Shown piece after piece: positions 42,302-64,000 of a stretch of DNA of 64,000 nt. The notes under the pieces were generated by a model. That model was not told where the DNA came from and did no database searches. It saw only the letters and a program-made list of their open reading frames with translations. Within the stretch, counting starts at the first letter, position 1. Every line of letters begins with the position of its first letter. The stretch lies in contig CAVUKA010000003.1 in the NCBI GenBank assembly GCA_963741945.1, forward strand, positions 828,489-892,488, given 5' to 3'. The translations under genes were made by a program, and so were the position numbers. Origin of the DNA: an uncultured Gemmatimonadales bacterium. Its GTDB lineage: Bacteria; Gemmatimonadota; Gemmatimonadetes; Longimicrobiales; RSA9.

Positions 42302-42343
42302 CGGATGACGGAAGCGGCCGTGCTGTTGAATCGGGAGGTTCCA

Positions 42344-44685: not shown

Positions 44686-45074
44686 AGACGGCCGTGGAGC
44701 GGCGCAGGGTCGTCGAGCAGGTCCAAGCCGCAGCAGGGGTATCGGAGCGACGGGCGATTCGGTTCACGGGCTTCCCGCGCTCCACCATGCGCTATAAGAG
44801 CCTGACCGATCCCCAGGAGGAGCTCCGTCAACGGATCAAGGAGCTGGCGGCGCAGCGAATCCGCTGGGGCTACCGGCAGATCCACACGCTGCTCCAGCGG
44901 GAAGGCTGGACGGTGAACCGGAAGCGCGTCCAGCGGCTCTATCGGGAGGAAGGACTGGCAGTGAGGCGCAAAGGAAAGAAGCGGCGGAGCCAGGCGCCGC
45001 GGCCGGTGCGGGATGTGGGTCCTCTAAACTATGTCGCGGTTTCTCTCTAAACTTTGTCGCGGCAAGGGCGTGAG

Positions 45075-47257: not shown

Positions 47258-48607
47258 CCTCCCCGCCCTCCGATTCTCAGAGCCCTGAGCCCTCGGAACG
47301 GCGGCATTCTACGCTGTGGATGCCCTCAACTGCGACATAGTTTGGAGAGAATCAGCGACAGAATTTCGGGAACTCACACGGGAGCCGCTCGGGGGGCCGA
47401 ACGAGCGGTGGAGCATGGACTTCGTCTCGGACACGCTCAGCAACGGGCGGCGCTTCCGCTGCCTGAACATCATCGACGAGTTCAACCGGGAGTGCCTGGC
47501 GATCCACGTGGCGCACTCGATCCCGTCGGTGGGCGTGATCGAGGTCCTCGAGCAGCTGAGGGAAGAGCGCGGGCTGCCGGACGTGATCGTGACCGACAAC
47601 GGCTCGGAATTCACCAGCCGTGCCTTCAATGCGTGGGCCTATTCGCGGGGGGTGAAGATCGACTACATCCAGCCGGGCAAGCCAATGCAGAACGGGTTTG
47701 TGGAGAGCTTCAACGGGACCTTCCGGGACGAGTGCTTGAACCTGCACTGGTTCCTCACCCTCCGGGACGCCCGAACGACCATCGAGGCGTGGAGAGTGGA
47801 CTACAACGAAGTACGGCCGCATAGTTCCCTTGACCGCCTCACCCCCGCTGAATATGCGGGATTACATCAACAGAGCGAGGAGAACCTCGCCATCACCAGC
47901 TCGCACCTCCCGTAAAGACTGGATCAGCTTTGGGGGTCACCTCAGGTCAACCACAAGCGGATCTACCGGCTCTACCGCGAAGAGGGGCTGACGCTGAAGC
48001 GAAAACGCCCGAAGCGGCGGAAGAGCGCGGTTCGTCGACAGGCTCGGTCCGCAGCGCAGGCGCCGAATGAGCGCTGGGCCATGGATTTCGTTCACGACGT
48101 CCTGGCCGGCGGCCGCACGATCCGGATCCTGACGGCCATCAATGCCTTCACCCGGGAGTGCGTGGCACTGGTCGCGAAGCCGAACTTCAAGGGTGAGGAT
48201 GTGGCGGCGATGCTGACCGAGGCTGGCCGGCAGCGTGGCGCTCTGCCTGGCCTGATCTCCGTGGACAATGGCACGGAGTTCACCTCGAAAGCCTTGGATC
48301 ACTGGGCCTACTGGAACAAGATTCAACTGGACTTCAGCCGGCCCGGAAAGCCAACCGACAATGCCCATATCGAGAGCTTCAACGGGACACTGAGACGGGA
48401 GTGCTTGTCGCAACACTGGTTCATCAATGTCGAGGACGCTCGACTTACCCTCGAGAAATGGAGGGATGATTATAACAAGTTCAGGCCCCACAGCAGCTTG
48501 GGCCAGATCCCGCCGCGCCAATTCCGGCTCGGCGAAACCTTCACCCCCGTCCCGGAGAAGCTCGTAAACTCACCTGTTTCCCGGACCTAATTCGGGGTCA
48601 GGACCAA

Positions 48608-48657
48608 ACCAGCTCGCACCTCCCGTAAAGACTGGATCAGCTTTGGGGGTCACCTCA
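48608..48657 (+). mobile_element. Orphan right end of IS3 element B (50 bp)
   Basis: Identical to 47895-47944. Confidence 0.9.
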
Positions 48658-49521
48658 GTCATCTTCCGTGTAGGCGCAGTTGGCACCGAGCACCGCCAGA
48701 ATGCTGTTCGGAAAGAGGAAGTTCGGCTGCCGCACCAGTGCTGCCCGGATTTCGTCGAGCTTCTTCTTAATGAGCGGTCGCTGATAAGGCAGAGCCGAAG
48801 TCGGCCCAATCGCCGGCAGCTCGTCTTTCCGAAACACCCGCGAAACGCCGAGAAGGTCATAGGGCGAGACCTCAAACGTGAACACGTCTGCTTCGGGGCT
48901 GGTTGCATCAGCGCTCCCAACAATGGTCCGGTCGCTCACCCGTAGCAGCCCGTGTGTGTCCTTGCGGATTTCGATCGGCCGGCGGCCTTGGCCGAGGTTT
49001 ACCTCCAAGCGATCCAAGAAGTGGGACTTTGCGAATTCACCAATGCAGTCGGCGTAGTTCTCGAGGACCCCTACACTAGACCGGAAGAAGACGGCCATGC
49101 GAGGGATCGTTAGGTCGACATCGACATCGAACTGTTCGGCCTTCGTCGTGATGAAGAACCCAATGAGAGTGCGAACACGGCGGAATGCCGCAAGCTGGTC
49201 CGCCGGGACTCCGAGTGCCGTCCAGACTGCGTCGGTCCGATTCGTGGTCTCCAAAGCCCGGATGTGGCCGCGAAACTTGGAATACTTTCGCTCGAGATCA
49301 CGCTTTCCCGAGCGGGCCGTGATCTCGCCCAAAAGAGCGAACCTGCCTTCAGCTATGAGGAAGTCAATCTCACAGTGCTCGTTTGCGCTAAAGCGACCCT
49401 GAGGGAACATGTCCCGCATTCTGGCGTGCGTCCCCCGCGCGCAGGCGAACCCCAACCTCGCGAGTAGGTCAGCCATGCCAGATTCCAGCTGTGGTCCGGT
49501 AAGTCCGAGTAGGGCGCTCAT
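48658..49521 (-). pseudogene. Nuclease-like N-terminus plus DGQHR/DndB-like domain, 3'-truncated by an IS end
   Basis: 'EIDFLI...LLGEIT'; 'YQRPL...LDEI...LFPNSIL'; the ORF stops at the IS boundary before any DGQHR motif. Confidence 0.65.
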
Positions 49522-49555
49522 TATGAATGGATGTCCGCGGAGCGGCTCAGCAGAG

Positions 49556-50734
49556 TCAGGTGACCGCAGACCCGCGCAAGCGTCTTAGCTTCCGAGCCGC
49601 AGCAATCAGACGGGTCGCCGCGTAATCTACGTCTTCTTCCGTCGTCGTTCTCCCCAGTCCAATCCGTACTCCCTCACGAACCTGTTCGGGGGTGAGACCA
49701 ATCGCCGAGAGCACATGCGACGGCTGCGCTTTCGCACTCGCGCAGGCTGCGCCGGTGGAGAAGGCTAGGTCCGGAAGGTTGACCACGAGAGACTTCGCCT
49801 TTACGCCGGGAATGCCAAACGCCAGGTTGTGCGGAAGCCTTTCCCGCGGGTGGCCGTGCAGTCGCAGGTCGTCGAAATCCGATCGTAGACGGTCGAGGAG
49901 GCGGTCCCGAAGACTTCTCAGCCGCTCCCCCTCGGCTTCCAAGCGCTTGGCGGCGATTTCAGCGGCTGCGCCCAGTCCGACGATTCCGGGGACGTTCAGC
50001 GTCCCGGAACGCCACCCGCTTTCTTGCCCTCCTCCGAATTGCCGAGCCTGCAGCTTCACGCGCGGGTTCCGTGAGCGTACGTACAAAGCTCCAACGCCTT
50101 TGGGACCATAAAATTTGTGAGCACTCAAGGAAACGAGGTCGAGACCGAGTCCCTCGATACTTATGGGAATGTGCCCAACTGCCTGCGTTGCGTCAGTGTG
50201 AAACAGAACGCCGGCTTCTCGCGTGGCGCCCGCGATAACGGAGAGCGGTGCAAGTGTCCCGATTTCGTTATTCGCAGCCATTACGCTGACGAGAATCGTA
50301 TCCGGGCGCAGAGCCGCCGCCACACGATGAGGGTCCACGCGCCCCTCGTTGTCGACGCCGAGAAAGGTGATTTCGAATCCGCTATCCTCGAGGTGCCGGA
50401 GCGGATCGAGAACTGAAGGGTGCTCCGTCTGGACAGAAATGATGTGGCGCCCGCGCTCGCGATACTGCTCGGCGGCTCCAAGAAGGGCCAGGTTGTTTGA
50501 CTCGGTTGCCCCGCTAGTGAATACAATGTCGTCAGCGGAACAGCCGAGGAGTAACGCTAGTTGTTCCCTCGCGCGATCCACAGCGACGGTGGCCTCGTGC
50601 CCCAGGCGATGGTCACGGCTGGAAGCATTCCCGAACGCCCTGGTAAAGAACGGCAGCATTGCGTCGAGCACACCCGGATCAACAGGCGTTGTGGAATGAT
50701 GATCGAGGTAAACCGGGCGTTCTTCTCCTGTCAT
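49556..50734 (-). CDS. dndA: Cysteine desulfurase, DndA/IscS-type
   Basis: 'YLDHHSTTP', 'FTSGATESNN', 'SAHKFYGPKG', 'STGAAC'; ATGA overlap with dndE. Confidence 0.9.
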   Translation of the reverse strand: MTGEERPVYLDHHSTTPVDPGVLDAMLPFFTRAFGNASSRDHRLGHEATVAVDRAREQLALLLGCSADDIVFTSGATESNNLALLGAAEQYRERGRHIISVQTEHPSVLDPLRHLEDSGFEITFLGVDNEGRVDPHRVAAALRPDTILVSVMAANNEIGTLAPLSVIAGATREAGVLFHTDATQAVGHIPISIEGLGLDLVSLSAHKFYGPKGVGALYVRSRNPRVKLQARQFGGGQESGWRSGTLNVPGIVGLGAAAEIAAKRLEAEGERLRSLRDRLLDRLRSDFDDLRLHGHPRERLPHNLAFGIPGVKAKSLVVNLPDLAFSTGAACASAKAQPSHVLSAIGLTPEQVREGVRIGLGRTTTEEDVDYAATRLIAAARKLRRLRGSAVT

Positions 50735-51123
50735 GCAGCCGTGCGCGCCTGCGAGGGCACGAGGCCGAGGAGGTCCGAGTAATCGCGGACGCGGTTGCAG
50801 ACCATGTTTGCGCCGCGATTCATGTGAGCTCGGAGCTGGGACAGGTACTCTCCGTCGGGATCTAGGCCGTCCTGCAGAAGCCGCTCCTTCAGGTAAACGT
50901 CGAACAGTTGCTCCCACTCCCCGAAGAGCGTCGATCTGTTCAGCTCCGGTCCCTCTTCATCGAAGGACTCCGCCTGTGGGATTCCAGGCTCCGCGAGGGA
51001 CATGATGAACCCGAGCCTGCATAGCAAGTTTGGTGTGACGCCTAGCTTTCCCTTTAGATTGCGGAGCCGAAACCCGACGTCCGAGCTAAGCCGAAGCCGG
51101 TTCCATTTCACTTGCGCGCTCAT
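50731..51123 (-). CDS. dndE: DNA sulfur modification protein DndE
   Basis: 'LKGKLGVTPNLLCRLGFIMSL...ELNRSTLFGE...AHMNRG'. Confidence 0.9.
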   Translation of the reverse strand: MSAQVKWNRLRLSSDVGFRLRNLKGKLGVTPNLLCRLGFIMSLAEPGIPQAESFDEEGPELNRSTLFGEWEQLFDVYLKERLLQDGLDPDGEYLSQLRAHMNRGANMVCNRVRDYSDLLGLVPSQARTAA

Positions 51124-53143
51124 AGGTCCCTCCGTCCCAGAAGTACCCGGGTTCAATGACGGTGTGTTGCCAATCTTCTATGAACTCCAACCGGTAGCTA
51201 CGAGCAGTAGCGCCGGCGAGACCCTCGAAGTAAATGCGGTCGATTTCGGTGTCCGTCGAGAGAATGATCACCTGGTGCGCGGCTTCCGGGAAATATCCTT
51301 CGATTAGGCGCCGTCGATGATCTGCGTCCAAGCGCCCGAGCGGTGTGTCAATGATCAGCGGCAACGGCCTGCCGGATGTCTGCGCAAGTGCCCAAAGCAT
51401 AGCAATCGCATAGATCTGCTTCTCACCTGCCGAGAGGTCTCGCTTCGGCAAGGCGCGGCCGCCACTGTCTACGAGCAGAACCTCGAACGTTACGGGATCA
51501 ATCCTTACCTGCTCCACAAGTTCATCTTTCCGGGCGAGGCGATTGAAGCACTTCACGAACCGGTCACTCAGGTCAGACAGCTTTTCCTCCGTGAGTCGGG
51601 CCTCAAACCTCGAGAGCACCTCCTGAACGGACTTCATAAGCCGCACACGGGTAACCTCCCCTTGTGCGGCGATAGCTTCCTCTCGGGCCTTTCTGGTCTC
51701 ACGCTCGTTCTGGGTGATCCGCGTACAGAAGCGCTCAATCGCAGCCTCCTGCTGGCGAGCCGCTTGTTCCATCCGTCCGAGGTCCGCGTGGGCGGCGTTC
51801 AGCTCTTCAAGAAGCGGACGGAGCACGTCATCGGCAGGTGCAGCGCGCAACCGCTGCTCAACGCGGGCGCGTGCCCGCGTTGCGCGCTCGAGTCGAGCCT
51901 CCAGATCCTGAACGAGTTCGGGGATTTTGGTCTGCACTTCTCGGATCCATGCCTGAAGCCGCCGTGCGTCGCCTTCCGAAACGTCGAAGACCGGATCGGT
52001 ATGTGCTTCAACGGCGTCCAAGGAGAGGATTTCGCGTACGCGGGCCTTCAGGAGTCGAGAGATCTTCCCGCGGGTCTGGTGGTGGATTTTCTCGAACGTG
52101 CTGACCTCCTCTTCCAATGCGCTGTTCAGCTTCGTCAGCTTCGACATCAGGAGGGTGCGGGCAGCAACCACCTGCTGCCTTTCGGATTCACTCCTAAGCC
52201 TTCGCTCAACGCCCTCGCCGAGCTCCGGCGCAAGCGCAAACGGCAGCAGTGTTTCGCAGAGACTGCGCACATGGGTATTAATCTCGGCCAACTCGGCTTC
52301 AAGTCGTCCGCGCTTCTCGATATACTCCTCGCGCTTCTCAGCGTAAGCGCCGCCCTCGCGGCGAATCCGCTCCTCGATCCGCGCGATTACCTTCTGCTGC
52401 TCAGCGATCGTGGAGCGGATCCTGTCTGCCTCGCTCTCCGCAGCCGCAAGCTCCGCACGGAGTGCAGCTAGTTCCTTCTCCCTTACGGCCGAAGCCTCGC
52501 GAGCCGCCCGGCCGGCGGAGGCGCTCGAGGCTCTCCCGATGAGGACATCGAGGTCAGCTTGGAGCCGGTCCGCGTAATCTAAACCGATCAAGTTCTTGAC
52601 GGAGCGGGCGAAATCGAGGTTCTCCCCATCTTCCGCAAGCGCCTGAATCTTCTCTCCGTCGAAGAAAAACAGCTGCGAAATGCCAGGTGGAATGAGGTCG
52701 CGGACGAAATCCTCCCACTGATCCTGGTCCAGATCGCCGAGCGGCTTACCATCGCGCTTTACGAGGAGGCTCTCTACGGCCCTAGCGCCCCGGATGCGCC
52801 AGCTTCTTTCGACGAGATAATCCGTGGCCTTGCCAGCGTGAACGTGCTGAAACTCAATGGCAACTGCGGCCTCCTCCAGCGACACTGTAGGATTCCGCGG
52901 TCGGTGAATTCGATCCCGTAGAAAGGTTTCGTAATCAACGCGACGCACGCGAGCGCCGAGCGCGCGCTGCCCGTACAGACAGACCCGAATCGCGTCGAGG
53001 ATTGATGTTTTTCCGCTTCCGTTTCGGCCGCCGATCAGCACGATCGGCTTCTTGGGACTGCTGGCGAGCTGTGGTCGCAGATCGATTGCATGCGCGCCGC
53101 AGAACACGCCGTAGTTCTTGAGGCGCAGGCGGGTGATGATCAT
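51086..53143 (-). CDS. dndD: DNA sulfur modification ATPase DndD (SMC-like)
   Basis: 'GGRNGSGKTS', 'LFFFDGEKI', 'LSAGEKQIYA', 'IIDTPLGRLD', 'LSTDTEI'; TAATG coupling to dndC. Confidence 0.95.
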   Translation of the reverse strand: MIITRLRLKNYGVFCGAHAIDLRPQLASSPKKPIVLIGGRNGSGKTSILDAIRVCLYGQRALGARVRRVDYETFLRDRIHRPRNPTVSLEEAAVAIEFQHVHAGKATDYLVERSWRIRGARAVESLLVKRDGKPLGDLDQDQWEDFVRDLIPPGISQLFFFDGEKIQALAEDGENLDFARSVKNLIGLDYADRLQADLDVLIGRASSASAGRAAREASAVREKELAALRAELAAAESEADRIRSTIAEQQKVIARIEERIRREGGAYAEKREEYIEKRGRLEAELAEINTHVRSLCETLLPFALAPELGEGVERRLRSESERQQVVAARTLLMSKLTKLNSALEEEVSTFEKIHHQTRGKISRLLKARVREILSLDAVEAHTDPVFDVSEGDARRLQAWIREVQTKIPELVQDLEARLERATRARARVEQRLRAAPADDVLRPLLEELNAAHADLGRMEQAARQQEAAIERFCTRITQNERETRKAREEAIAAQGEVTRVRLMKSVQEVLSRFEARLTEEKLSDLSDRFVKCFNRLARKDELVEQVRIDPVTFEVLLVDSGGRALPKRDLSAGEKQIYAIAMLWALAQTSGRPLPLIIDTPLGRLDADHRRRLIEGYFPEAAHQVIILSTDTEIDRIYFEGLAGATARSYRLEFIEDWQHTVIEPGYFWDGGTYERASEMEPASA

Positions 53144-54570
53144 TAGTTTCGCTCCGCTCGCAGGGCCAGTAGTTCCTCGGGGGTGCGCCATTCCTCGCGG
53201 AATGCCGCCTCAAGCTGGCTATAGATCCCGGCCCGGCGGTTCATCCCCATGTAGCTACGTTCAACGTCCAGGAGCTTGGCGACCAGTTCAGCCGGGACCT
53301 CATGCTCCGAGCAGATCTCGGCCAGAATGGCGGTCTCCCGAACTCCGTAGCTCCCATTGTCGTCCACCAGCCACGCGAGGTCCACCCCTTTAACTTGGCG
53401 ATAGATGGCCGGTACGGAGTCCTGCCAATCCTGGCGCTCAACTCTCCAGATGCGCCGGATCTCGTGAAGCTCCGATTCCGAGATCAGCGCGAAATCGGTG
53501 TCGCCGGACATTTCCTGTGCGGCCACCTCGGCCTCGAGCAGCTGTTTCAGAAAGGCGCGACAGGTCTCGAGCGAGTAGGGGCCAGGAATGATGGAACCGT
53601 CTTGTTTGAACGAAACCCTACCGTTCTTCCGCTTGTACTCGCGAAGCTCCACCTTTCGCTCTGGGTCCTGCGTCTTCGCGAGCATGTTTCTGAAATCGAG
53701 CAGGGGTGTGAGCCACTCCTGCCCCGAACGGACGAGCGACTCCATGGACTGGTCCTTTACCACCACTGTGCAAACCCAGCATCCGAAGCGGCTATTGCCG
53801 CAGGAGGGTGTTGTCTCGTCAATGACTAGGGGGCATTCGCCCGCGTTCGCGTTCCGATACAAGTCGAGGAGTTCGTGATTATCGTTCCCCCACGGCGAGT
53901 CGACCTCGAGGAGGAACGACCAAATGTCCCGGACCGAGAACTCCTCCACAGGCGTGTAGACAAAGGCATTCGGGAGGCTGGAGTGGCGCTTCAGCAGTTT
54001 GCCCGGGATGCGGTGGAGGCTGAGCACCTGGTCTCTGGTGGTACTCTCACCCCTTCTTACACCCAGGATCATGACGACCTCGCCGTGTTCTGCAACGCGA
54101 TCGAGGATGAACTTGTTCGCCGGCTTGATCTTGAGGCGGTCGGTGCACCAGCGGAAGCGGCTAGAGGGTGCCGCGTACCCATGACCGAGGAGGTTCACCC
54201 AAAAACTATCCGCGAGGGCTGGCTCAACCTTTTCGGCGTGAAAAGGTAGCCCATGGGCGGCAGCGGCCTCGTTGATGCGTGCCAGCGTCGTGTCAATGTA
54301 CTCAACGATAACCGGCGTCTCGACCTGGGTGTCCGAGGCGATGACGAAGATCTTCTTCTTACGCTTCTCGGCTGGCAGGCTGCGTACTGCTTCCCAAATC
54401 AGCTGTAGCGCGGCCGTACTGTCCTTCCCGCCGCTATAACCCACGATCCAAGGGCGGTCATCGCCCACGTAAACTGTGCGAATTTCGTCATAGATATCGT
54501 CGATTGTCCTGTGATCGAACACCGAAGGCGGCTCGTCTTCGGAAACCACCCGAACCAACTGCTCAGCCAC
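53143..54570 (-). CDS. dndC: DNA phosphorothioation sulfurtransferase DndC
   Basis: 'PWIVGYSGGKDS', 'RWCTDRLKIKP', 'ECPLVID...SCGNSRFGCWVC'. Confidence 0.96.
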   Translation of the reverse strand: MAEQLVRVVSEDEPPSVFDHRTIDDIYDEIRTVYVGDDRPWIVGYSGGKDSTAALQLIWEAVRSLPAEKRKKKIFVIASDTQVETPVIVEYIDTTLARINEAAAAHGLPFHAEKVEPALADSFWVNLLGHGYAAPSSRFRWCTDRLKIKPANKFILDRVAEHGEVVMILGVRRGESTTRDQVLSLHRIPGKLLKRHSSLPNAFVYTPVEEFSVRDIWSFLLEVDSPWGNDNHELLDLYRNANAGECPLVIDETTPSCGNSRFGCWVCTVVVKDQSMESLVRSGQEWLTPLLDFRNMLAKTQDPERKVELREYKRKNGRVSFKQDGSIIPGPYSLETCRAFLKQLLEAEVAAQEMSGDTDFALISESELHEIRRIWRVERQDWQDSVPAIYRQVKGVDLAWLVDDNGSYGVRETAILAEICSEHEVPAELVAKLLDVERSYMGMNRRAGIYSQLEAAFREEWRTPEELLALRAERN

Positions 54571-54910
54571 GCTGCCCCCAATGGGGCGATCCCGCCCCGT
54601 CGAAAAGATTTGGTTCGTCGCGTTCGGCCTCGCTCTGGTCGAGTCTGCGTGCCTCCGCTTCCTCAGCCAAAACCTGCCCTAAGCGCTTAGAAACCGCCAA
54701 TATCCGCTCACCCTGAATCTGCAGAATTGCAGCAACCGCCTTCAGGTTATCCGGCCGAGGTACGCGCTCCCCCGTCCGCCAGTAGTGTAGGGTTTGAGGG
54801 TGTAGCCCGGCCCGCTGCATCACCGCGCGGATGGAGAGCTGCGAGGCCTGTGCAGCTTCCTCTGCGAGCTTCTGCAGTTGGTCCGTGCTGATCGTTTGCC
54901 AGTCAGCCAT
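54563..54910 (-). CDS. XRE-type HTH protein (alternative start 54949)
   Basis: 'LSIRAVMQRAGLHPQTLHYWRTGERVPRPDNL'; stop overlaps the dndC start. Confidence 0.7.
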   Translation of the reverse strand: MADWQTISTDQLQKLAEEAAQASQLSIRAVMQRAGLHPQTLHYWRTGERVPRPDNLKAVAAILQIQGERILAVSKRLGQVLAEEAEARRLDQSEAERDEPNLFDGAGSPHWGQRG

Positions 54911-54937
54911 AGGTGCTGCGGGATACGAAGTTAGACA

Positions 54938-54975
54938 ATCGTAAAACATCTTCCTCCTGTTGACAAGAATCTCAA
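54938..54975 (-). promoter_or_regulatory. Putative sigma70 promoter/operator of the XRE-dndCDEA operon
   Basis: Minus strand TTGTCA-N17-TACGAT; palindrome TTGA-N8-TCAA (54960-54975) over the -35 box. Confidence 0.5.
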
Positions 54976-55099
54976 CTTCTCGCCCCGGATACTAGTGCTG
55001 GCTGGAAGACGGAGGCGAAGGCGACCCCCGGGACGGCTGCACTGCCGATTTTGCTTGACGGCTGAGTCCTCCCAAACTCCGAACCTTCGCGAGCGGATT

Positions 55100-55588
55100 C
55101 TACACGAACAGGTGGTCGGCGGTATCAATGAGTTCGTCCAGGATCTCGGCGTATCGGGGAAGAAACTCCTCTGGGCTTCGAGGCTGTGCGTCCCCGTAGC
55201 GCTCGACCAGCAGGTCGAACCCGCCGCTGGCGTAGCGGTTCAATAGAGCCACACCTTCAGCACCGAGAGCCAGCGCTCTCGAGTTGACCAGCTGTGAAAG
55301 CAATTCTTGAATCTCTTTCCGGTCTTCGACGCGGTAGCCTACGCGCGCCATTTGAGCCAGCAATAAGAGCGACACGAATATCAACTCGACGGGCTTATAA
55401 TCCTCGATCACGTACTGGACAAAGACCGGCGCCGGAATCCCGGCCTCCCCTGGATCGCTGCTCCGCTGCCCGAACAGACCGAGCATCGCGCACAAGTGAT
55501 AAATATCCCATTTCGACTTGATGGGTTGTGCGCCCTGAATATGACGGAAGAATTCGTCGGCGTCCTCGCGCAGCCGGAAGTCAGCCAT
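55100..55588 (-). CDS. pbeD: PbeD-like protein
   Basis: 162 aa, 'FRL...WDIYHLC...LLNRYASGGF'; fourth gene after the PLD-helicase, small gene and ATPase. The call rests mainly on synteny. Confidence 0.65.
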   Translation of the reverse strand: MADFRLREDADEFFRHIQGAQPIKSKWDIYHLCAMLGLFGQRSSDPGEAGIPAPVFVQYVIEDYKPVELIFVSLLLLAQMARVGYRVEDRKEIQELLSQLVNSRALALGAEGVALLNRYASGGFDLLVERYGDAQPRSPEEFLPRYAEILDELIDTADHLFV

Positions 55589-57569
55589 CTCGCTCCTCCT
55601 CCCGGAACTCGACTGAGTCGAAGAACGCCCGATCGCGGACGATCACGCCCCCCTCCACGCGTTGAACCCCGTTCGGGGGGAGCTTATCAAGAAGTTCTTG
55701 ATTTTCAGGGCGATCGGCAAACGCGGTCAAGAAGATCACGTTGTCACTGCCGGCTGAGCGCTCCAGTGCCGGCACAAAGCCGGCGCGCTCTCGGTCGATG
55801 ATAAATCCGACGAACTGGGGGCAAATGTGAGGGAGCTTCCCTCCCACCTCTGAGGCCACGCGCGTGTCCAATGCAAGCGCTGGCGCGTCAACTACGAACG
55901 GCAGCGAATTGTGCCCCCTGCCGAACAGCGTCGACAGAAAGCTGTAGCCCACAGCGAGAGTCTGTCCCTGACTAGCTCCCTTTTGGCCGCTCAGGATCAG
56001 CGATCGATCGATCGCTTCGACGGTGATCTCATGCCCCTCCAAGACGTCGCTGAGATTTCGATTCATGTCCTCCACGATCGCGTCGCTAAGCTGCCTCAAC
56101 GCTATCTGGCGAGCCCGAGACAGAATGGTTCTCAAGGTCTGAGTATTCTGACGCAGGGTCAGAGTTTCCGTGACTTCGGCGTACGCATTCTCTGCGTCTT
56201 CTAGCTCCCTGTCCCAAAAAGCGATACAGAGAAGTGAATCGTCCGTCTTCCTGTCCGTCGGCTTCGGCTTCCGGGTCAGCTCCTCAATCACCCCTACGAG
56301 CTTTCCGAGGCGCGACTCTTTGGCCTCCAGATCTGACAGTATCACAGCGAGCTCGTCGTCCCCCTGCTCGACCAGTTGCTGGGCGATTCCGGTGAGCCGT
56401 GTATCGATAGCGTCTCGGTCGTGTGCTGCGGCCGCGAGCCGCTGCCCCAGCTCCGAAAGTGAGGCGGTGGGCGCCTCGACGGCTTCCACCATGCGTGCCA
56501 CATCTGTCTTGAGTGCGTTGATCACTCCGGCGGCATCGTCAGCGAGGTACTGCTCTGATTTTCGACGAATGCTGTCCTTCGAACTCTCGTCGAGCGGGCG
56601 GCCGCAAATGCACTCGACTTCCTCGAGGAGTTCCTCGAAGAAGCGCCGAGACGTGCTCTCAGGGAGCTTCAACCTGTCCAGGTGGTCTCTTAGCTGCACG
56701 AGTGCATCGGCCACCCGACGGTTGAACTTGTGAGGCTCGCGCAATCGGTCCATGAGGGCACCAGAACCCGTAGCGACGTCCTCTGCGGCGAATTCAAGCT
56801 GCCGTTGCAGTTCCTCCCGCTTCGTCCGCAGCTCCTCCGTCCGACCGGTATGGAGATCCCTTCGGCCGCGAAGTTCAGCGACGTCTTGCTCTAGGATATC
56901 TGTGTGGGCACTTGCCTCACGCAACGCTTCCTTCAACTCTCGAACCTTGCTCCTCAACTCATCGCGGCGATTCTTGCGCGCCGTGAGGCCAGCCTGCGCC
57001 GTGGCACCCACCTTATCCGCGCGTTTCTCCCAGATCCCGTTAAGCGCTGCGCCCAGCTCGTCCAAGAGGTAAAGCTGAAAAAATGCTTCGATGGCTTCCT
57101 CTGCGCGTGTATTCGCGGAATCCAGGAGTGCCTGGGGTAACTCCCCATCGAAAACGATCAGGTTCACGAAATGCGGTTCTAGGAAGCGGAGCAGTTCAAC
57201 CGGCGGGTCGTACTTCGCCTTCTGCCCCCGATGGAATGTCGTCGCGTAGTGAATCAGTCCGGCTTCGAAGTCGAAATCCATGCGGAACGTGAGAGGACTC
57301 CCGTCGAATCGAAGACGGAGTTCAAAGCTACCGCTGTCCGCCGATAGACCCCTTCGCCGGAACGACCGGACCTTTTCTTGGTCCCAATTTCGGGCTTCAC
57401 CAGTGAGCGCGGCGCGGAGGCAGCGCAGGGTGGTTGTCTTTCCCGTTCCGTTCGGCATCTGAAGCAGTGCGACTCGAGCGGGAGATTGCCTGTCGCCTTT
57501 ACGGAAGTCAAAGGAAAAGTCTGGGCAGCGAAGGTTATGCGCCTCCCAACCCAATAGTTCCAAGTTCAT
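55581..57569 (-). CDS. pbeC: PbeC-like Rad50/SMC-type ATPase with CxC motif
   Basis: 'MPNGTGKTT', 'VFDGE', coiled coils with 'ECICGR', 'ASQGQ', 'FVVDAP'. Confidence 0.78.
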   Translation of the reverse strand: MNLELLGWEAHNLRCPDFSFDFRKGDRQSPARVALLQMPNGTGKTTTLRCLRAALTGEARNWDQEKVRSFRRRGLSADSGSFELRLRFDGSPLTFRMDFDFEAGLIHYATTFHRGQKAKYDPPVELLRFLEPHFVNLIVFDGELPQALLDSANTRAEEAIEAFFQLYLLDELGAALNGIWEKRADKVGATAQAGLTARKNRRDELRSKVRELKEALREASAHTDILEQDVAELRGRRDLHTGRTEELRTKREELQRQLEFAAEDVATGSGALMDRLREPHKFNRRVADALVQLRDHLDRLKLPESTSRRFFEELLEEVECICGRPLDESSKDSIRRKSEQYLADDAAGVINALKTDVARMVEAVEAPTASLSELGQRLAAAAHDRDAIDTRLTGIAQQLVEQGDDELAVILSDLEAKESRLGKLVGVIEELTRKPKPTDRKTDDSLLCIAFWDRELEDAENAYAEVTETLTLRQNTQTLRTILSRARQIALRQLSDAIVEDMNRNLSDVLEGHEITVEAIDRSLILSGQKGASQGQTLAVGYSFLSTLFGRGHNSLPFVVDAPALALDTRVASEVGGKLPHICPQFVGFIIDRERAGFVPALERSAGSDNVIFLTAFADRPENQELLDKLPPNGVQRVEGGVIVRDRAFFDSVEFREEERDG

Positions 57570-57784
57570 GTTTCAGTCCCAAGATCGGTTTTCAGGGCCG
57601 ACTCAAGCGCGCGGTAGTGCTCTTCCACATCGCTTCCCCGCCCGAGGTTGGATTCTCCTCTTGCAGTCGCTCGCAACCATGCCAGGAGACGATCGGCGAC
57701 GACGTCATCCTGCCCGTTTTCGCGCACCGCCTCCCTTATTGCCCCAACCACCTGGCTGTCGAAGATTTGATCTCCCGTACTCAA
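57566..57784 (-). CDS. pbeB: PbeB-like small protein
   Basis: 72 aa, 'IREAVRENGQDDVVADRLLAWL'; overlaps both neighbours by 4 nt. Confidence 0.65.
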   Translation of the reverse strand: MSTGDQIFDSQVVGAIREAVRENGQDDVVADRLLAWLRATARGESNLGRGSDVEEHYRALESALKTDLGTET

Positions 57785-59745
57785 GCCTTCCTCCTCGTTC
57801 TTGAGAGTTGGGTAAGCCAGTTCCTTCTCTCAGCATCAGCGCTCACGGGCTCCCCATCGTCGAGATTTTCATCCAACGCATCCGCCCGTACGAAATCAAC
57901 GATCAAGGCTCGCTTTTCCGGATTAAGAGGATCCGTTCTGAGGCACCGGCCCATACGCTGTATGGTCTCCAGTTTAGCCCGATCGGATGCGAACAAAACC
58001 ACCGTGGTCAGACCGCGGACGTCGATACCCTCAGAAATCCTGTGGCATGTTATGAGGCAATCAAGTTCGCCCTTCGCAAAAGCCTCCAACCGGTCTTGCT
58101 GATCATCGCTGTAGTATGTCGAGTACCGACTCGTATAGCCGTGTACAAGGTCCAAGAGTTGCTCACCGAAGGCGGTGTCGTGGACAAAGATGATGCAGCT
58201 CTCCAGAGCGGACGAGTTGCTTTTCAGGTACTCAGAAAAGGCAGGTATCTTGTTCTCGGCCGTCTTGTAGACGTCTGAGAGGCGCCTCCACACCTCTTCC
58301 TTCGTCATCGGCTTCCCTTCTTTGGCCCGAGCTGCCTGGAGTCCGTAGACTGCCTGCAATCGCTGGCGGTCGTAGTCGGTTAATTCAAAGACGAGCTCAT
58401 GATAGTCGAACTCGCAGAGGATGCCCCGCTCGATAGCCTCAGAGAGCCCGAAGCGAAAAATCACTTCGCCGACCTCCTCCTCTATGAATATGTTGCCTTC
58501 TTCATCGTATGTGCGTTCGGGAGTCGCGCTCAGGCCTAGAACATACCGAAACTGCCTGTGTGCACCTGACAATTCGGCGCGGTTCTGGGGACTTCCAAAC
58601 CGATGCACCTCATCGTGTACAATCATCGTTCGCGGATGGGCGGCTGGTGGGAGCCCTTTGATCACGCTCGCAAGTTGCTGCCGAGAGGCCACGAGCACGG
58701 ATTTGCGTGGGTGAGCAACATACCGGCCGAGCTGGTGGTACCGGTCAAAGTGCCGATAGATCGAGATACGCGGCTCGTCGATCCATCGAATCAGTTCCCC
58801 AGCCCATTGATTCAGCAAGTCGGTCCCAAACGTCGCCACAATCAGGCTGTCGATCTCACCCAGTTCGTAGAGTGTGCTGAAGATCCTGAGTGCCGTGCGG
58901 GTCTTGCCAGTTCCTGTGGCCATCTCCAGGACGCCGCGCTTCTTGTCCAAGAAAGCGGCTATCGCAGCATCCTGGTGACGCCAGAGGTTCTCGGGTTCGG
59001 GGCGAGACTTGGGAGCCGAGAAGGGAGGCGTGTCAGGAGAATACGTGCGGATTTGCTCCAGAAACGCCTCGGAAGGCTCTGAAATGGCAAGTCCCTTAAG
59101 TCGTCCCTCCCACGCTTCCTCAAACTGCTGCACCTTGGTCCTGACTCTTGTCTCGTCCCCGGCGACCCAACTCCGGAAGACATCTAGGGTTTCATGGTTG
59201 CGCGAGTGGCCGCCTTGCGTTTCGTTGGCAGAGCCTGTGAAAGCGACAGAGTATCCTCCGTCGAATTCGAACACTCCGATCTTTTCGTGGAAGATCGCCC
59301 CGCTCTCGAAACGCTCAGGGAGAGCGAAGCGGAGAGCCAGCCGTTCGTTGGCAATCATCCACGCAAATACCTCCCGACGCACATCCGACAATTCAGTTGG
59401 CTGGAGACTCTGCATCAACTGACTAAGAAGGTCGTCAACGACCTTTCGGCGCAGCTTCTCCCGAGCCTCACCTCCCTCCACAGCGCGCCGTAGGGCCTTC
59501 AAGTCCTCGTCGGAGAGCACCGGCGCAATGAGCAGCCGAATCCCCGCGCTACTCGCGTTCAAGAGGCGGGGGAGCGCCCCCACCCAGCTCGCGAGGGCGT
59601 CGGTCGTGAAATACGCCGCTGCTCGGCTGTAACGGGAGCAATGGCTCAAACAGGGCTCGAAGAAGTCCGTAGCAAGATCGCTCGTTCCCGACCTATAGTG
59701 CGGCTTAAGGTGTGCAATAGCGCTCGGGAGTTCATGCATCGTCAC
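57781..59745 (-). CDS. pbeA: PbeA-like PLD-nuclease/SF2 helicase fusion
   Basis: 'IFHEKIG...FTGSANET' (PLD), 'MATGTGKT', 'DEVH', 'GLSATPER', 'EGIDV', 'IQRMGRCLR'. Confidence 0.82.
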   Translation of the reverse strand: MTMHELPSAIAHLKPHYRSGTSDLATDFFEPCLSHCSRYSRAAAYFTTDALASWVGALPRLLNASSAGIRLLIAPVLSDEDLKALRRAVEGGEAREKLRRKVVDDLLSQLMQSLQPTELSDVRREVFAWMIANERLALRFALPERFESGAIFHEKIGVFEFDGGYSVAFTGSANETQGGHSRNHETLDVFRSWVAGDETRVRTKVQQFEEAWEGRLKGLAISEPSEAFLEQIRTYSPDTPPFSAPKSRPEPENLWRHQDAAIAAFLDKKRGVLEMATGTGKTRTALRIFSTLYELGEIDSLIVATFGTDLLNQWAGELIRWIDEPRISIYRHFDRYHQLGRYVAHPRKSVLVASRQQLASVIKGLPPAAHPRTMIVHDEVHRFGSPQNRAELSGAHRQFRYVLGLSATPERTYDEEGNIFIEEEVGEVIFRFGLSEAIERGILCEFDYHELVFELTDYDRQRLQAVYGLQAARAKEGKPMTKEEVWRRLSDVYKTAENKIPAFSEYLKSNSSALESCIIFVHDTAFGEQLLDLVHGYTSRYSTYYSDDQQDRLEAFAKGELDCLITCHRISEGIDVRGLTTVVLFASDRAKLETIQRMGRCLRTDPLNPEKRALIVDFVRADALDENLDDGEPVSADAERRNWLTQLSRTRRKA

Positions 59746-62270
59746 GGCACATCCTCTCCGAGCTGCCGCACAAGCTCTGCCTGAGCCTCCCGTCGTTTGA
59801 GGCTCTCATAGCGTTCCAGCAGGCTCTCGAGGTCCAGGGGCGCTTCTATTGAGTCCGGCTGGCTCCGAGGTTGGAGGCGGAGCCTGTCTCGCGCCCACCC
59901 AATGTTCGAATCCGAGATGCGTCGAGAAACCTCCTCGTAGAAGCGCTCCCTCGACCACTCTCCGGGCCTTGACTCGAGCGGGTGAAAAATCTGCTGCAGA
60001 TTTGCCCTAGCGTCGGGGCGAGCGTCGTGTGATTTCCACCAATCAGAAGAAGTGGCGAGGATTTCGGTGAGGGTGAGGAGGGCGACGGCGGTGACGCCGG
60101 TAGACGCGTCCAAGCGCTTCCCCAAGACTCGATTTGCCCGGACCCAGTTCATCTGGCCTGTGGAAATCGCCACTCTGGCGACAGCGAACAGTCGCTCGAG
60201 ATCGACAGAGCTTACTTCTAGGTCGGCAGGCAGTTCAGAAATGGGCCCCATACTATTACAACGACCATCGCCGTGGAATCGATTGCGCGCGACTTCAGAG
60301 ACCGGCCACTTGCTGGGTTCGGCGACAGAGAGTAAGCCATTGTAAAGCCTGGAGGGCACGGCACCCTCCCCCCAGCGGACCCAATCAAACTCCATCCCCG
60401 ACGTCCACAGGGGGAAGGCATTCAGAGGCTCTCCTCCTTGACGTGCCAGGACATACCAGAAGAGATCATTCTCATTTAGAAGAAACTCGGCGCTCGTTGA
60501 GACCGGATCCAACGCCAACAGATGCCGAGGCAAACCGTAGACTCCGGGGGCCAACCTCACGAAGGCTCCGTGTATGGTCAGCACGGCAGCGGCAGAGCTG
60601 TCGGGGTACCGCGCTTCTGTCCGTTCGCGGAACCGTGCGATCAGCTCGCGGGACGGCAGCGGGCCCTCGCTTGCGAGCACCGACGCAAGCTGGCCAGCGA
60701 TCGTCTGATCGCCTTCGTTTGGAGGGGACCGCTTCAGTGCCTCAGCCGCCTGCACAGGAATGCCAGCGAGGTAATCGGTGACGGGGATAAAAGGAGGAGC
60801 AGGCTCCATTTTCCAATCGACCGCCCCGATTCCGAGGTCGCCGCAGTCGAGGAACAAGTGCGAAAAATCCTCATCGCTAACCGTTCGTTGCACGTCGTTC
60901 ACGGTCAAGGAACTGCCCGCTTCCCGCGCGAGGACCCAGAGGCGGAGCAGCGGAATCGGCCGTCCTCTCCCCACGAGCAGGTCGTGGAGATCTAGCGCAC
61001 GGCGGCGATAAGTGGTGAGAGGCCGCCTACATGCGTATTGCCTGTATGGGATGAGGTTTTCGGACACTACTGCGGCCAACGCCCACGGAACTCCCTCCCC
61101 TAACTTCAGGTCCTCCAGCCGCCGCGCGACCAAGTCCTGGAACGATCGCTCAAGCTCAAGAGAAGCCTGGAGAATCGCCTCTCTATGAAGGGGACCTCGA
61201 TAAAAGGCGTTGCCGAGGTACTGACTCGTCGCGTCTAGCCACTCCTCGATCCCTCCGGCGTGCACGGTGAGATACAGACGTTCCAGCCCCTCAAGTGCCG
61301 CATCCCAGGCATCCGGATCCCGGATAACGAAATTCGTTGAGAGCGCGAGTTTCCGCCACAGCATTTGGTCGACCGATTTCGGGATACCCCGGCCGTCATT
61401 GAGCTTCTCAAATGTGCGATTGCGGATTTGGCGGACTCGCTCCCGCGTAACGCCGAGCTCAGCCCCAAGTTCGTCCAGCGTAAGGCGCTCCGTTTTCCGG
61501 TCTGGGAATCGAGCAGCCACGATTCGTCTTTCGCGGCCCTTCAGAGCGGCGCTCTGCTGCTCCCACCACTCAGCGGGCGTGCTGTACGTAGGGTGAGGCG
61601 GGATGGCTTCGCTGCTCTCGGATGCACATGACTCCTCTGAAGCAGTGCCGAACTCCGGCCCGTCAGACGCGGGCGCTGGCGTGGTGCTGCCCATGGAGTC
61701 TGAGGAAAGACCCCCAGCGGTGCTTTGGGACCGATCATCTTCTCCTGCGCTGCCTGTTGCTCCAGGTACAACTCTGGCGACACCGAGCTTCCGCAGTCCC
61801 CGCACGAGTTCCGCAGCCCCCTTACGCCCCAACAGTGGGATCTGCCGGAAGTCTTGAACTCCCCAACCCGCAAAGTCAGCCAGCCTTTGAAAGCCGCTTC
61901 GCAGCAATGCGTTCGAGATTCTCGTGCTTAGCTCGAGCTCCTCGACCGGTGTGGTCCGGAGTCGCGGGGGGATATGTAGTGGGGGTTTGCTACGTCGCAT
62001 CGGTTCGATTTGTGGCTCAGATGAGCGAGTCAGGACCCGAACAACGGACCTGACGGGTGGCAGGGGGTGGGACCAGCAGCTGAGACCGAACTCATTTTTC
62101 GCAACAAAGATGTTAGCGAGCGATGGATGCGGCAAGCGACAACTACTTTCCTCCACTGGCCAAAATGGCCCAACGCTTATCCTCTCTCCCCGTAGGGCTA
62201 CTTGTGCCTCAGGTTCGAAGGATGGGCGACGTTTTCCAGGCGGATGCGGCACGTTGGCCTCCGTGATCAC
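59742..62270 (-). CDS. Large protein with RNAP alpha-CTD-like and sigma70 region-4 HTH domains (start uncertain)
   Basis: 'VEELELSTRISNALLRSG...IPLLGRKGAAEL'; 'RERRIVAARF...TLDELGAELGVTRERVRQI'. Confidence 0.75.
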   Translation of the reverse strand: MITEANVPHPPGKRRPSFEPEAQVALRGERISVGPFWPVEESSCRLPHPSLANIFVAKNEFGLSCWSHPLPPVRSVVRVLTRSSEPQIEPMRRSKPPLHIPPRLRTTPVEELELSTRISNALLRSGFQRLADFAGWGVQDFRQIPLLGRKGAAELVRGLRKLGVARVVPGATGSAGEDDRSQSTAGGLSSDSMGSTTPAPASDGPEFGTASEESCASESSEAIPPHPTYSTPAEWWEQQSAALKGRERRIVAARFPDRKTERLTLDELGAELGVTRERVRQIRNRTFEKLNDGRGIPKSVDQMLWRKLALSTNFVIRDPDAWDAALEGLERLYLTVHAGGIEEWLDATSQYLGNAFYRGPLHREAILQASLELERSFQDLVARRLEDLKLGEGVPWALAAVVSENLIPYRQYACRRPLTTYRRRALDLHDLLVGRGRPIPLLRLWVLAREAGSSLTVNDVQRTVSDEDFSHLFLDCGDLGIGAVDWKMEPAPPFIPVTDYLAGIPVQAAEALKRSPPNEGDQTIAGQLASVLASEGPLPSRELIARFRERTEARYPDSSAAAVLTIHGAFVRLAPGVYGLPRHLLALDPVSTSAEFLLNENDLFWYVLARQGGEPLNAFPLWTSGMEFDWVRWGEGAVPSRLYNGLLSVAEPSKWPVSEVARNRFHGDGRCNSMGPISELPADLEVSSVDLERLFAVARVAISTGQMNWVRANRVLGKRLDASTGVTAVALLTLTEILATSSDWWKSHDARPDARANLQQIFHPLESRPGEWSRERFYEEVSRRISDSNIGWARDRLRLQPRSQPDSIEAPLDLESLLERYESLKRREAQAELVRQLGEDVP

Positions 62271-62734
62271 AACTCAAACAGCAGCGTAGCGAGCAGGGGT
62301 TCGGCCTCGTCCATCGGAATAGCCGAGATGAGGAGCCGGCCTGCCTCCGACCTTAGTTCCGGCGACCTGACCAGCAGATCCCACACTTCGTCTGTCAGCC
62401 CGCCAACAGCTCGCGCAGCAATCAAGTCTCGGGGAGAAACGTCACCCTGGGCAGAGACCTTCAACCCTTCCGAAGGGATCACGACCCAGATGCCGTCGTT
62501 CTGAAGTCGCCAAAATGGATAGTTCGGTTGGAGCCGAGTTCGCGCAGCGTCGAACTGAGCCAGCAAAGTCGTGAGCGCGTCGTGCACTTCGGCATAGGGA
62601 AGGAAGCGGCGCCCCCTTAGCCTACATTCACGCAGCGCATACAATAAGAGCAGCGGTTTGTGAGGAGCCCTTTCGCCAGCGCGCTTCCAGCGGACGATCG
62701 CTCCCAGACGCTCCAACATTTGGCGTTCCGTCAC
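62267..62734 (-). CDS. Stand-alone sulfur-binding-domain (SBD)-like protein, no HNH domain
   Basis: 'GERAPHKPLLLLYAL' and 'PNYPFWRLQNDGIW', the signature of the N-terminal domain of ScoMcrA-type PT-dependent endonucleases; GGAGGT RBS. Confidence 0.75.
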   Translation of the reverse strand: MTERQMLERLGAIVRWKRAGERAPHKPLLLLYALRECRLRGRRFLPYAEVHDALTTLLAQFDAARTRLQPNYPFWRLQNDGIWVVIPSEGLKVSAQGDVSPRDLIAARAVGGLTDEVWDLLVRSPELRSEAGRLLISAIPMDEAEPLLATLLFEL

Positions 62735-62836
62735 GTGAGATCACCTCCGCCGGTCGTCGCTCATGCTACGATCGAAGTTCCCAAAATTACGCCCCATATC
62801 GAGTTTCGAAGTTATGAAATGCCTTTTGTATTGAAT

Positions 62837-63469
62837 TTAGAAATCTCCCGAGAGGTACAGCCTCTCCCGGCAATACCTATGTTCCCAGTTCTCCTTCTTA
62901 TGGGCGAGAAGGCGTTCGATTGACCGCGCCTCTCGATTGATGACGAAATAGGCGTTGTGTGCGGAGGTGTCACTTACTAAACCGAGGAAACCCCGGCCCA
63001 AGTATAGCCGCATGTCCGTGGTGTAGTACTTTGCCTCGATGGCAATCACTACCTTATGACTCCTAGGGGCCACGGCTGTGCCTTGATTACGACACACCTC
63101 CGCCTCATCATGAAATATGACTGCAACATCGAACTCGTGAAGCACGGCGGAGCGTCCCGAAACTCTTATTCCGAGGTGCGCCTCAAGATCCGGGCACCCG
63201 GGGAAACGGATCACTGCGTAGCCGTAATTGCGGTGGTTTGAATTGATGTAGCCTGGACTGGTGCGAAAAACGAAGGGACTTGGATGGCTGCCCTGAATAG
63301 ACCTCAGTTCGATCGCTCCGCCTTCGGTCTCGGCAGCCTTCAGCACCAAGGAAAAGAGGTAGGCTTCGTATAGATCATGTACCGCTGACGAACTAGTCAG
63401 CGAAGGGAGCACCGCCTGTCCTAGCGCTGCCTGTATCTCAGCGAGCAGATTCGGTCGAATTGGCAACAT
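62837..63469 (-). CDS. Putative PD-(D/E)xK nuclease-fold protein
   Basis: 'DLYEAY', 'HEFDVAVI', 'AIEAKYY'. Confidence 0.6.
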   Translation of the reverse strand: MLPIRPNLLAEIQAALGQAVLPSLTSSSAVHDLYEAYLFSLVLKAAETEGGAIELRSIQGSHPSPFVFRTSPGYINSNHRNYGYAVIRFPGCPDLEAHLGIRVSGRSAVLHEFDVAVIFHDEAEVCRNQGTAVAPRSHKVVIAIEAKYYTTDMRLYLGRGFLGLVSDTSAHNAYFVINREARSIERLLAHKKENWEHRYCRERLYLSGDF

Positions 63470-63941
63470 TCCCTCCACGGCGCAGTTCCTCGATAAGTGC
63501 GACAAGCGAGGCTGCCGCATCCTGGCGCTCCGCCGCTTCAGTACGACGTAGCTCAAACATCTTCTTTACTTCGGCTTCTGGCTCGAACACCAAGTGCTCT
63601 TGAAGGCCGAAGCCCTCCAGATTATCAAAGGTTGCCTCTGCAACCGCATTTGCCTTCGGTATCGCTAGAACTATGGCATCTAGGAGTATCTCCAGGCGTT
63701 CTGTCGCGGAGTACTCCTCAGAAACAGCGAACGTTTCCGTCTTGGTCGAAGGTGGGCGTTGGTAATAGATCTCAGCATCCAGAAGTTCGCGGTGCTGCTT
63801 GGCCCGAAGACGTCTAGTCTGAACCTTGCCGAGGGCAATCTGTTCCTCCACTTCCGCGATGACCCACTCCAACTCCTGTACGCGGAGGGCATCCGCAAGT
63901 TGATCGTACGCTTGTCGGGCTTCGCTTGCAGTCAGATCCAC
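63438..63941 (-). CDS. Hypothetical helical protein
   Basis: 167-aa ORF, AAGGAG RBS, overlaps the next gene. Confidence 0.65.
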   Translation of the reverse strand: MDLTASEARQAYDQLADALRVQELEWVIAEVEEQIALGKVQTRRLRAKQHRELLDAEIYYQRPPSTKTETFAVSEEYSATERLEILLDAIVLAIPKANAVAEATFDNLEGFGLQEHLVFEPEAEVKKMFELRRTEAAERQDAAASLVALIEELRRGGNVANSTESAR

Positions 63942-64000
63942 AGGGCTCCTTTGGTGGAAAACCGTTCATGGGTTGCCGCTAATGTAGGACCCGCTGCTAC

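Follow-up and report, generated by a model that had tools for sequence, protein, structure and literature searches.

A nuclease-free sulfur-binding domain at the head of a Pbe–Dnd gene chain in an uncultured Gemmatimonadales bacterium

The stretch of DNA analyzed here (the window, 64,000 nucleotides) is the last 64 kb of contig CAVUKA010000003.1 (positions 828,489 to 892,488; assembly GCA_963741945.1) of an uncultured Gemmatimonadales bacterium. Near its end, with just 1.27 kb of sequence upstream, lies an intact minus-strand open reading frame (ORF) of 155 amino acids (aa) with a GTG start, which codes for a sulfur-binding domain (SBD), the domain that reads phosphorothioate (PT) marks in DNA. 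The original prediction had described this ORF by the motifs APHKPLLLL and YPFWRLQ, and the ORF list and the sequence confirm both the ORF and the motifs. On the minus strand it heads a chain of genes, most of them overlapping or abutting, which continues with an 842-aa protein, PbeA, PbeB, PbeC, PbeD, a helix-turn-helix (HTH) protein, DndC, DndD, DndE, and a cysteine desulfurase (Table 1). The original prediction took the ORF for a nuclease-free SBD of the ScoMcrA type that may have been repurposed for self-recognition, with an SBD-HNH gene disarmed upon the arrival of dnd as the alternative.

The identity of the domain is supported by several types of search. In the PDB, residues 8-136 match the ScoMcrA SBD (5zmo_A, E 4.1e-12), and the SprMcrA SBD (7cc9_A) is matched at E 4.1e-11; the window SBD is ~27-30% identical to these domains. 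The NCBIfam family NF045808 ("phosphorothioated DNA-binding restriction endonuclease") is matched over profile positions 3-136 of 284 (E 2.1e-32), the PADLOC model mREase_IV is matched at positions 98-229 of 560, and the precomputed database label of the protein (P0001) is PF26340. An AlphaFold2 (AF2) model built on 63 relatives has a pLDDT of 83.9 and a pTM of 0.82. When compared with known structures by Foldseek, it superposes on the ScoMcrA SBD–DNA crystal structure (5zmo_A) with template modeling (TM) scores of 0.80/0.79 and a root-mean-square deviation of 2.4 Å over 150 columns. SBDs (those of ScoMcrA, SprMcrA, and Hga) make up all of the 13 best structural matches. With family, PDB, PADLOC, and model matches in agreement, this is not a chance ORF; judged from sequence and predicted structure, it is, beyond reasonable doubt, a complete, folded SBD.

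In the sequence alignment, the sulfur-pocket residues H116, R117, Y164, P165, and A168 of ScoMcrA correspond to H25, K26, Y72, P73, and R76 of the window protein. According to the ScoMcrA paper, lysine is usual at position 117 among homologues, and R117K and A168R still bind (PMC6224610). As far as the alignment can tell, all five pocket positions are compatible with binding, and the window SBD itself would presumably bind PT-DNA. The match, the superposition, and the pocket together bear out the ScoMcrA-type assignment. The SBDs of ScoMcrA (5ZMO, 5ZMN, and 5ZMM; Liu et al. 2018, PMC6224610) and SprMcrA (7CC9, 7CCD, and 7CCJ) share domain, fold, and pocket positions with the window protein; however, they are domains of HNH nucleases, whereas in the window the SBD is the whole protein.

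No trace of a nuclease half was detected. A 298-position hidden Markov model (HMM) built from 120 SBD-HNH relatives and run in six frames over 59000-64000 (--max, E up to 1000) matched only 62324-62731 (profile positions 2-138), and no HNH trace was seen by eye in the three minus-strand frames of 61900-62270, the segment where a remnant of a cut gene had been thought possible. In the whole genome (96.73% complete), NF045808 has a single match and Pfam HNH_2 (PF13391) has none. Thus, the N-terminal SBD half of the SBD-HNH type IV family (NF045808) is present and the C-terminal HNH_2 domain is lacking, as predicted. Insertion of the Pbe–Dnd block into an SBD-HNH gene was also considered, and was rejected because the NF045808 and HNH_2 searches reveal no HNH half elsewhere in the genome. 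As a separate observation, a 627-aa ORF (40627-42510, minus strand) gives a weak match to a different HNH family, PF01844 (E 9.7e-4, below the cut-off), which is unrelated to HNH_2.

A strong ribosome-binding site, GGAGGTGA, stands 6 bases 5′ of the GTG of the SBD gene, in agreement with the original prediction. The overlap with the next gene that was also predicted depends on where that gene starts. If it starts at GTG 62270-62268, the codon shares bases with the SBD stop codon TGA (62269-62267), giving GTGA on the minus strand. If it starts at GTG 62252, which is used in the database gene call (P0042) and has GGAGG 5 bases upstream, there is a 14-base gap and a Shine–Dalgarno (SD) sequence of its own instead. 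The GC content of the SBD gene (0.59) is like that of the operon and unlike that of the genes upstream; in the spacer ahead of the SBD gene and further upstream it drops to 0.52-0.56. A simple σ70 consensus scan found no promoter, so a promoter there can only be inferred; the SBD, Pbe, and Dnd genes are presumed to be co-transcribed.

The genes that follow constitute a PbeABCD/CxC cassette together with a Dnd writer, although the PbeB-like protein scores just under its Pfam cut-off, and PbeD was assigned by its position and its similarity to the equivalent in a metagenome locus (L100). PbeD has been described as a DndE cognate (PMC10853773). Searches with Pfam and PADLOC revealed no DndB in the window chain, unlike in L100, where DndB is present. 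The window operon is of the same kind as DndCDEA-PbeABCD (Xiong et al. 2019, PMC6459918) and the CxC ABC-ATPase systems (PMC10853773); the main text on these systems lists neither an SBD nor a σ4/α-CTD protein, whereas the window has both. The GC content falls from ~0.65-0.67 to 0.52-0.62 across 44000-64000, and an IS21 pair marks the inner edge of this low-GC region; this would fit acquisition of the whole Pbe–Dnd block as an island at the end of the contig.

Table 1. Features of the SBD–Pbe–Dnd region of the window, in window coordinates.
Feature	Coordinates	Strand	Basis of assignment
Small overlapping upstream gene	63438-63941	minus	no family match; GC 0.52-0.55
239-aa protein gene	62837-63556	minus	no family match; GC 0.52-0.55
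AT-rich 102-bp spacer with ribosome-binding site GGAGGTGA	62735-62836	minus	sequence read; putative operon promoter region
Stand-alone sulfur-binding domain (SBD), 155 aa, nuclease-free	62267-62734	minus	PDB, NCBIfam, HMM, AF2/Foldseek
842-aa α-CTD/σ4/winged-helix protein	59742-62270	minus	Pfam, AF2, Foldseek
PbeA (HKD/PLD nuclease and SF2 helicase)	57781-59745	minus	PADLOC PDLC02703 E 7.5e-237; Pfam ResIII, Helicase_C, weak PLDc_2
PbeB-like small protein	57566-57784	minus	Pfam Sp-CxC PF20304 E 4e-6, 27.2 bits (cut-off 27.5); 35% identity to L100 equivalent
PbeC (CxC-type ABC ATPase)	55581-57569	minus	PADLOC PbeC models, best E 2.1e-18
PbeD-position gene	55100-55588	minus	no family match; position and 37% identity to the ORF after L100 PbeC
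XRE-type HTH, between Pbe and Dnd genes	54563-54949	minus	Pfam HTH_3 E 1.6e-5
DndC-like PAPS-reductase protein	53143-54570	minus	Pfam PAPS_reduct, Sp-DndD; 47% identity to L100 DndC
DndD-like ABC ATPase	51086-53191	minus	Pfam AAA_23, SMC_N; tblastn match to L100 DndD
DndE	50731-51156	minus	Pfam DndE PF08870 E 2.1e-22
Class-V aminotransferase/cysteine desulfurase (DndA/IscS-like)	49556-50917	minus	Pfam Aminotran_5 E 6.2e-77
IS21 pair (IstA-like 468 aa, IstB 259 aa)	45075-47257	minus	inner edge of low-GC region

The gene directly behind the SBD codes for a protein that Pfam resolves into a domain like the C-terminal domain of the RNA polymerase α subunit (α-CTD, residues 106-159) and a σ70 region 4 (residues 242-290), followed by ~550 aa of winged-helix-like character. 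Its AF2 model (pLDDT 81) starts with 88 disordered residues; from residue 90 onwards it is confident, with the exception of residues 161-213. Foldseek returned only σ region 4, α-CTD, and, with low confidence, winged-helix arrays (SelB, UFL1, and AlkX/YcaQ), with no nuclease among the matches. A HMMER search over 1.84 billion representatives yielded 732 relatives with a threshold of E 1e-3, and 59 when the threshold was E 1e-30; they have in common region 4 and a ~550-residue body rich in invariant tryptophans; the closest relative is P0043. Another search yielded 60 relatives (the tally includes the unpublished genomes G016, G017, G020, and G038, from which no locus is described individually), all of them matches to σ region 4 only, with no full-length homologue. 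The possibility that the 842-aa family contains a hidden SBD was rejected: profile–profile comparison gave a probability of 0.4%, so that no likeness to an SBD can be detected in the sequence of the protein's winged helices. A complex predicted for the SBD and the 842-aa protein (score 0.06, mark 0.32) weighs neither way.

Members of this family recur in front of PbeA. In L100, a 621-aa member (4309-6174) ends at the start of PbeA, which is followed by PbeB, PbeC, and PbeD, and DndB, DndC, and DndD lie upstream in divergent orientation. Among 401 sampled genomes of the phylum (a tally that includes the unpublished genome G116, from which no locus is described individually), nine contain a full-length PbeA-like gene, and at eight of these nine loci (L184-L187 and L189-L192) a 560-770-aa α-CTD/region-4 protein stands directly before PbeA (HMM E-values 1e-10 to 1e-19; for L185, hhalign gives a probability of 96.9% across 434 columns). 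The eight loci are kin, and two of them are identical; therefore, they are not independent. The α-CTD/σ4/winged-helix protein is, nevertheless, a recurrent Pbe cassette gene located directly upstream of PbeA. It is not among the PADLOC Pbe components, nor is it named among the Pbe/CxC components in the main text of PMC6459918 and PMC10853773.

The family also occurs in other surroundings. At L110 (7877-12694), a 1605-aa protein located directly before BrxP, BrxC, and PglZ includes the body typical of the family. At several metagenome loci (L104 8618-9517, L120 140-1039, L124 6238-7137, and L099 3054-3989), a ~300-aa protein with Recombinase and HTH_62 matches precedes the family gene, and mobile elements may thus be a second setting of the σ4/winged-helix family. 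Phage proteins commonly target the α-CTD and σ region 4, and for this reason a decoy or sensor role of the family is conceivable, though this is speculation.

The writers found with Pbe differ among loci. At L184-L192, Pbe is joined not to DndCDE but to an Ssp-like writer consisting of a cysteine desulfurase, a ~325-aa protein, a ~1150-aa protein, and a PAPS-reductase-like protein of ~300-345 aa; the Ssp-type assignment is tentative, as NCBIfam names neither the 325-aa nor the 1150-aa protein. At three of these loci, ~300-324-aa proteins are encoded ~7 kb from PbeA (L187 1265-2167, plus strand; L189 17846-18820, minus strand; L190 1303-2202, minus strand), and NF045808 matches them in its HNH half only (E 1e-17 to 1e-21). 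The unassigned N-terminal halves of these proteins, each ~175 aa long, could be another type of reader domain or one that has diverged strongly.

Published work provides a reason to look for a PT reader in such a cassette. The antiviral activity of PbeABCD needs PT marks and not the Dnd proteins, and the cassette is non-toxic upon deletion of the writer (PMC6459918). A PT-sensing step must therefore exist, and a PT reader would have an obvious job; the account given in that paper credits PT sensing to no Pbe component. In a census of 1722 SBD homologues, 94% had an HNH domain, 3% belonged to a kinase-containing type, and 2.8% had a PD-(D/E)XK domain; in every architecture, the chain that contained the SBD also had a partner domain, either enzymatic or of unknown function (PMC10602919). 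The text of the census names no stand-alone SBD class, though its supplements may list some.

The free SBD is, in our tentative opinion, best explained as a trans-acting accessory PT reader for the Pbe cassette. Presumably made from one transcript with the cassette and with the DndC-D-E-A writer, it would occupy the host's own Rp-phosphorothioate sites and, once bound, would help to provide the PT-dependent signal on which Pbe is known to rely. This could happen by one of two routes: the SBD could recruit or license the cassette on marked DNA, or it could flag marked DNA as self. Several observations argue for such a reader: the complete domain and its compatible pocket, the good expression signals, the uneven constraint described below, and the requirement of Pbe for PT. 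In addition, the gene was cut cleanly at a domain boundary, while the decaying copies found elsewhere in the phylum keep both halves, and the next gene is a genuine component of the cassette, as judged from L100 and eight of the nine phylum loci. A more specific version, in which this Pbe variant senses PT by means of the SBD, which passes information about the mark to the α-CTD/σ4/winged-helix protein and PbeA-D, is less probable.

Related arrangements have been described. In SspABCD-SspE, the effector SspE senses PT and relies on host PT marks (PMC9646914), which is the same logic as proposed here; however, SspE is an apparently unrelated protein that combines sensing and nicking in one chain, unlike the free window SBD. 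The wHTH(SBD)+SAD+HNH genes of Dnd loci (Aravind group, PMC10853773) likewise place a PT reader in a PT-writer locus, with a proposed self/non-self role. Those readers, however, share their chain with a nuclease and are mostly encoded downstream of the writer, whereas that of the window stands alone and opens the chain in front of Pbe. Genes of the fused type are reported inside Dnd loci of 698 taxa (PMC10853773), and one genome of our sample (G294) contains both a full SBD-HNH gene and a Pbe locus; coexistence is thus not forbidden. Dnd clusters adjoin <3.6% of SBD-HNH enzymes, for which inactive enzymes are one suggested explanation (PMC7461809). The claim of the original prediction that an SBD nuclease would be self-toxic in a dnd+ host was, in view of these reports, too strong.

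Several results weigh against an accessory reader. The SBD half is present in none of the ten other Pbe loci (L100 and L184-L192), and HNH-less homologues beside pbe/dnd genes, which the original prediction suggested looking for, are accordingly absent from all ten. Neither an SBD nor an HNH domain was found in any of 151 members of the 842-aa family, and no SBD was found in the flanks of 38 metagenome loci of that family (only ~11 of which have at least 2.5 kb upstream). Pbe cassettes therefore normally work without an SBD, and the SBD is not a regular component of the cassette. Furthermore, among relatives longer than 272 aa, 206 pass E 1e-3, and of the best 120 of these, 118 are SBD plus HNH_2 proteins of ~295-300 aa, with 34-50% identity to the window SBD. 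The ORF itself is known as a single sequence without orthologues, and its terminal branch ranks second in length among 131 when a tree is built from the SBD region. The long branch fits relaxed selection too, which may have acted on this copy, but it is at least in part due to the absence of close relatives. Over the first 150 alignment columns, which include the last helix, the window SBD keeps 35 of 46 invariant columns, against a minimum of 39 among 60 intact enzymes.

The HNH-less copy is thus a one-off in our data, given the 118 two-domain proteins among 120 relatives and the lack of an SBD at the ten loci. The original prediction had named just this outcome, nearest homologues that are all full SBD-HNH proteins and a copy that is a one-off, as telling against repurposing, and it largely holds; loss of the pocket, which had been named beside it, does not, since the pocket is kept. 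Of the idea of a reader repurposed for self-recognition, what stands is a real SBD with an intact pocket, free of a nuclease and placed in a Pbe/Dnd chain. Its being a one-off speaks against the idea, and contact of the SBD with the cassette proteins and the direction of its effect on Pbe (licensing or restraint) are still conjectural.

The same data favor the strongest rival, namely that the ORF is a remnant of an SBD-HNH type IV enzyme whose HNH half was lost, either by deletion or by replacement upon arrival of the Pbe–Dnd cassette. Such a remnant would have no selected role but might still bind DNA. We regard this as a real but less probable explanation. In its favor are the two-domain architecture of the relatives, the uniqueness of the window copy among the loci examined, the long terminal branch, four changed invariant core residues and a diverged last helix, and the suggestion in the literature that SBD nucleases adjacent to dnd are inactive enzymes (PMC7461809). 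Relatives of similar length point the same way: 41 pass, and many of them are SBD-HNH genes that are visibly frameshifted or cut, several plainly so. Twelve of 40 similar-length relatives, however, terminate just past the domain (profile positions 153-169), some of them on long contigs (P0002, 165 kb; P0036, 193 kb; P0014, 26 kb; and P0023, 14 kb), and SBD-only proteins may recur, to judge by these sequences.

Against a remnant stand the lack of any HNH trace in the six frames of 59000-64000 and of HNH_2 in the genome, and the form of the gene, which has a strong SD sequence, is coupled to the next gene, and ends exactly at the domain boundary: the ORF stops 2 residues past the family's last SBD motif, where the linker to the HNH domain starts. 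The decaying copies of the phylum look different. Full SBD-HNH genes were found in 24 of the 401 genomes, and broken ones, with both halves present and still adjacent in different frames or ORFs, in four (G230:C149; G412:C1:3213691-3214573; G197:C41:52936-53650; and G283:C5:1507309-1508068). An SBD half without an adjacent HNH or a larger ORF was found only in the window (besides a match at a contig start in G340). A different architecture was seen at L158 (G209:C62, 1-2130, minus strand), where an SBD (NF045808 positions 2-154, E 1.3e-31) fronts an ORF of at least 710 aa; the open frame spans 1011 aa, and the remainder contains no HNH domain but has an SPPLG motif that, by eye, recalls methyltransferase motif IV.

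The pattern of substitutions also argues against simple decay. When an HMM was built from half of the two-domain proteins and the other 60 were held out, the window SBD kept 35 of the 40 invariant columns of the core, compared to 33-40 in the held-out intact enzymes. In a MAFFT alignment, with columns at least 85% conserved taken as invariant, it kept 33 of 37 conserved columns of the core versus two of seven in the last helix (Fisher p 0.002). The pocket and the fold core were thus kept while the tail drifted, and neutral decay would not spare the core. The data fit a free domain that evolves without a nuclease and under selection on its binding core, although a single sequence cannot prove it. 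The EcoWI-type SBD-HNH family (NF045808; PMC7461809) provides the nearest sequence relatives, with 36-50% identity and common motifs around H-K-P and Y-P-F-W; compared to this family, the window SBD lacks HNH_2, has a diverged last helix, and scores below the NF045808 cut-off (112 versus 180 bits).

A less likely alternative is that the SBD acts as a PT-responsive regulator, a winged-helix protein that binds PT near a promoter and tunes the cassette against the writer, similar to a C protein or as a substitute for DndB. The SBD gene opens the chain and is preceded by an AT-rich spacer, no DndB is seen in the chain (unlike in L100), and the next gene bears σ region 4 and α-CTD modules. The nearest folds after the SBDs are MarR-type repressors, but these matches are weak (TM ~0.3, E >0.05). 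Moreover, a separate XRE-type HTH gene already precedes dndC, and the SBD literature, as far as its main accounts go, does not describe SBDs as regulators.

The two genes upstream of the spacer bear on a further possibility, a split PT-dependent nuclease, in which the SBD would work with the 239-aa protein as a PD-(D/E)XK partner, by analogy with fused Hga, where an SBD is paired with PD-(D/E)XK (PMC10602919). The SBD gene and that of the 239-aa protein are on the same strand, ~100 bp apart, and a possible D...ExK-like pattern can be discerned by eye in the 239-aa protein. Searches of Pfam, PADLOC, NCBIfam, and PDB with this protein returned nothing, and family, PDB, and fold comparisons lend the pattern no support. 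In the Atlas, 30 clusters of ~225-aa hypothetical proteins are found at 0.96, and the nearest named clusters are type II restriction enzymes, at only 0.78. The GC content of the gene (0.52-0.55) differs from that of the SBD–Pbe operon (0.59). On a Sphingomonas plasmid, a homologue with 32% identity follows a small overlapping ORF, beside SAVED/ThiF/MPN genes and with no SBD nearby; this two-gene module matches the two upstream genes of the window (63438-63941 and 62837-63556). Such a nuclease would also cut the host's own PT DNA. We consider the split enzyme very improbable. Least probable of all is a PT shield, in which the free SBD covers host PT sites against foreign PT-dependent nucleases or oxidation: the idea draws on the general notion that tight SBD binding hinders processes on PT DNA (PMC7461809), but it has no supporting context, leaves the coupling to the Pbe cassette unexplained, and concerns a genome where the NF045808 and HNH_2 searches found no resident PT-dependent nuclease.

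If the ORF is a remnant, the locus records ordinary gene decay within a defense island. If the SBD does serve as the PT sensor of the cassette, it would be the first SBD used for self-recognition and not for cutting marked DNA, and would provide an entry point to PT sensing by Pbe systems. The α-CTD/σ4 gene, which is apparently unlisted, could be of greater mechanistic importance than the SBD. A free SBD at the head of a PT-writing operon would offer a simple, testable handle on how PT-dependent defense reads the mark of its host.

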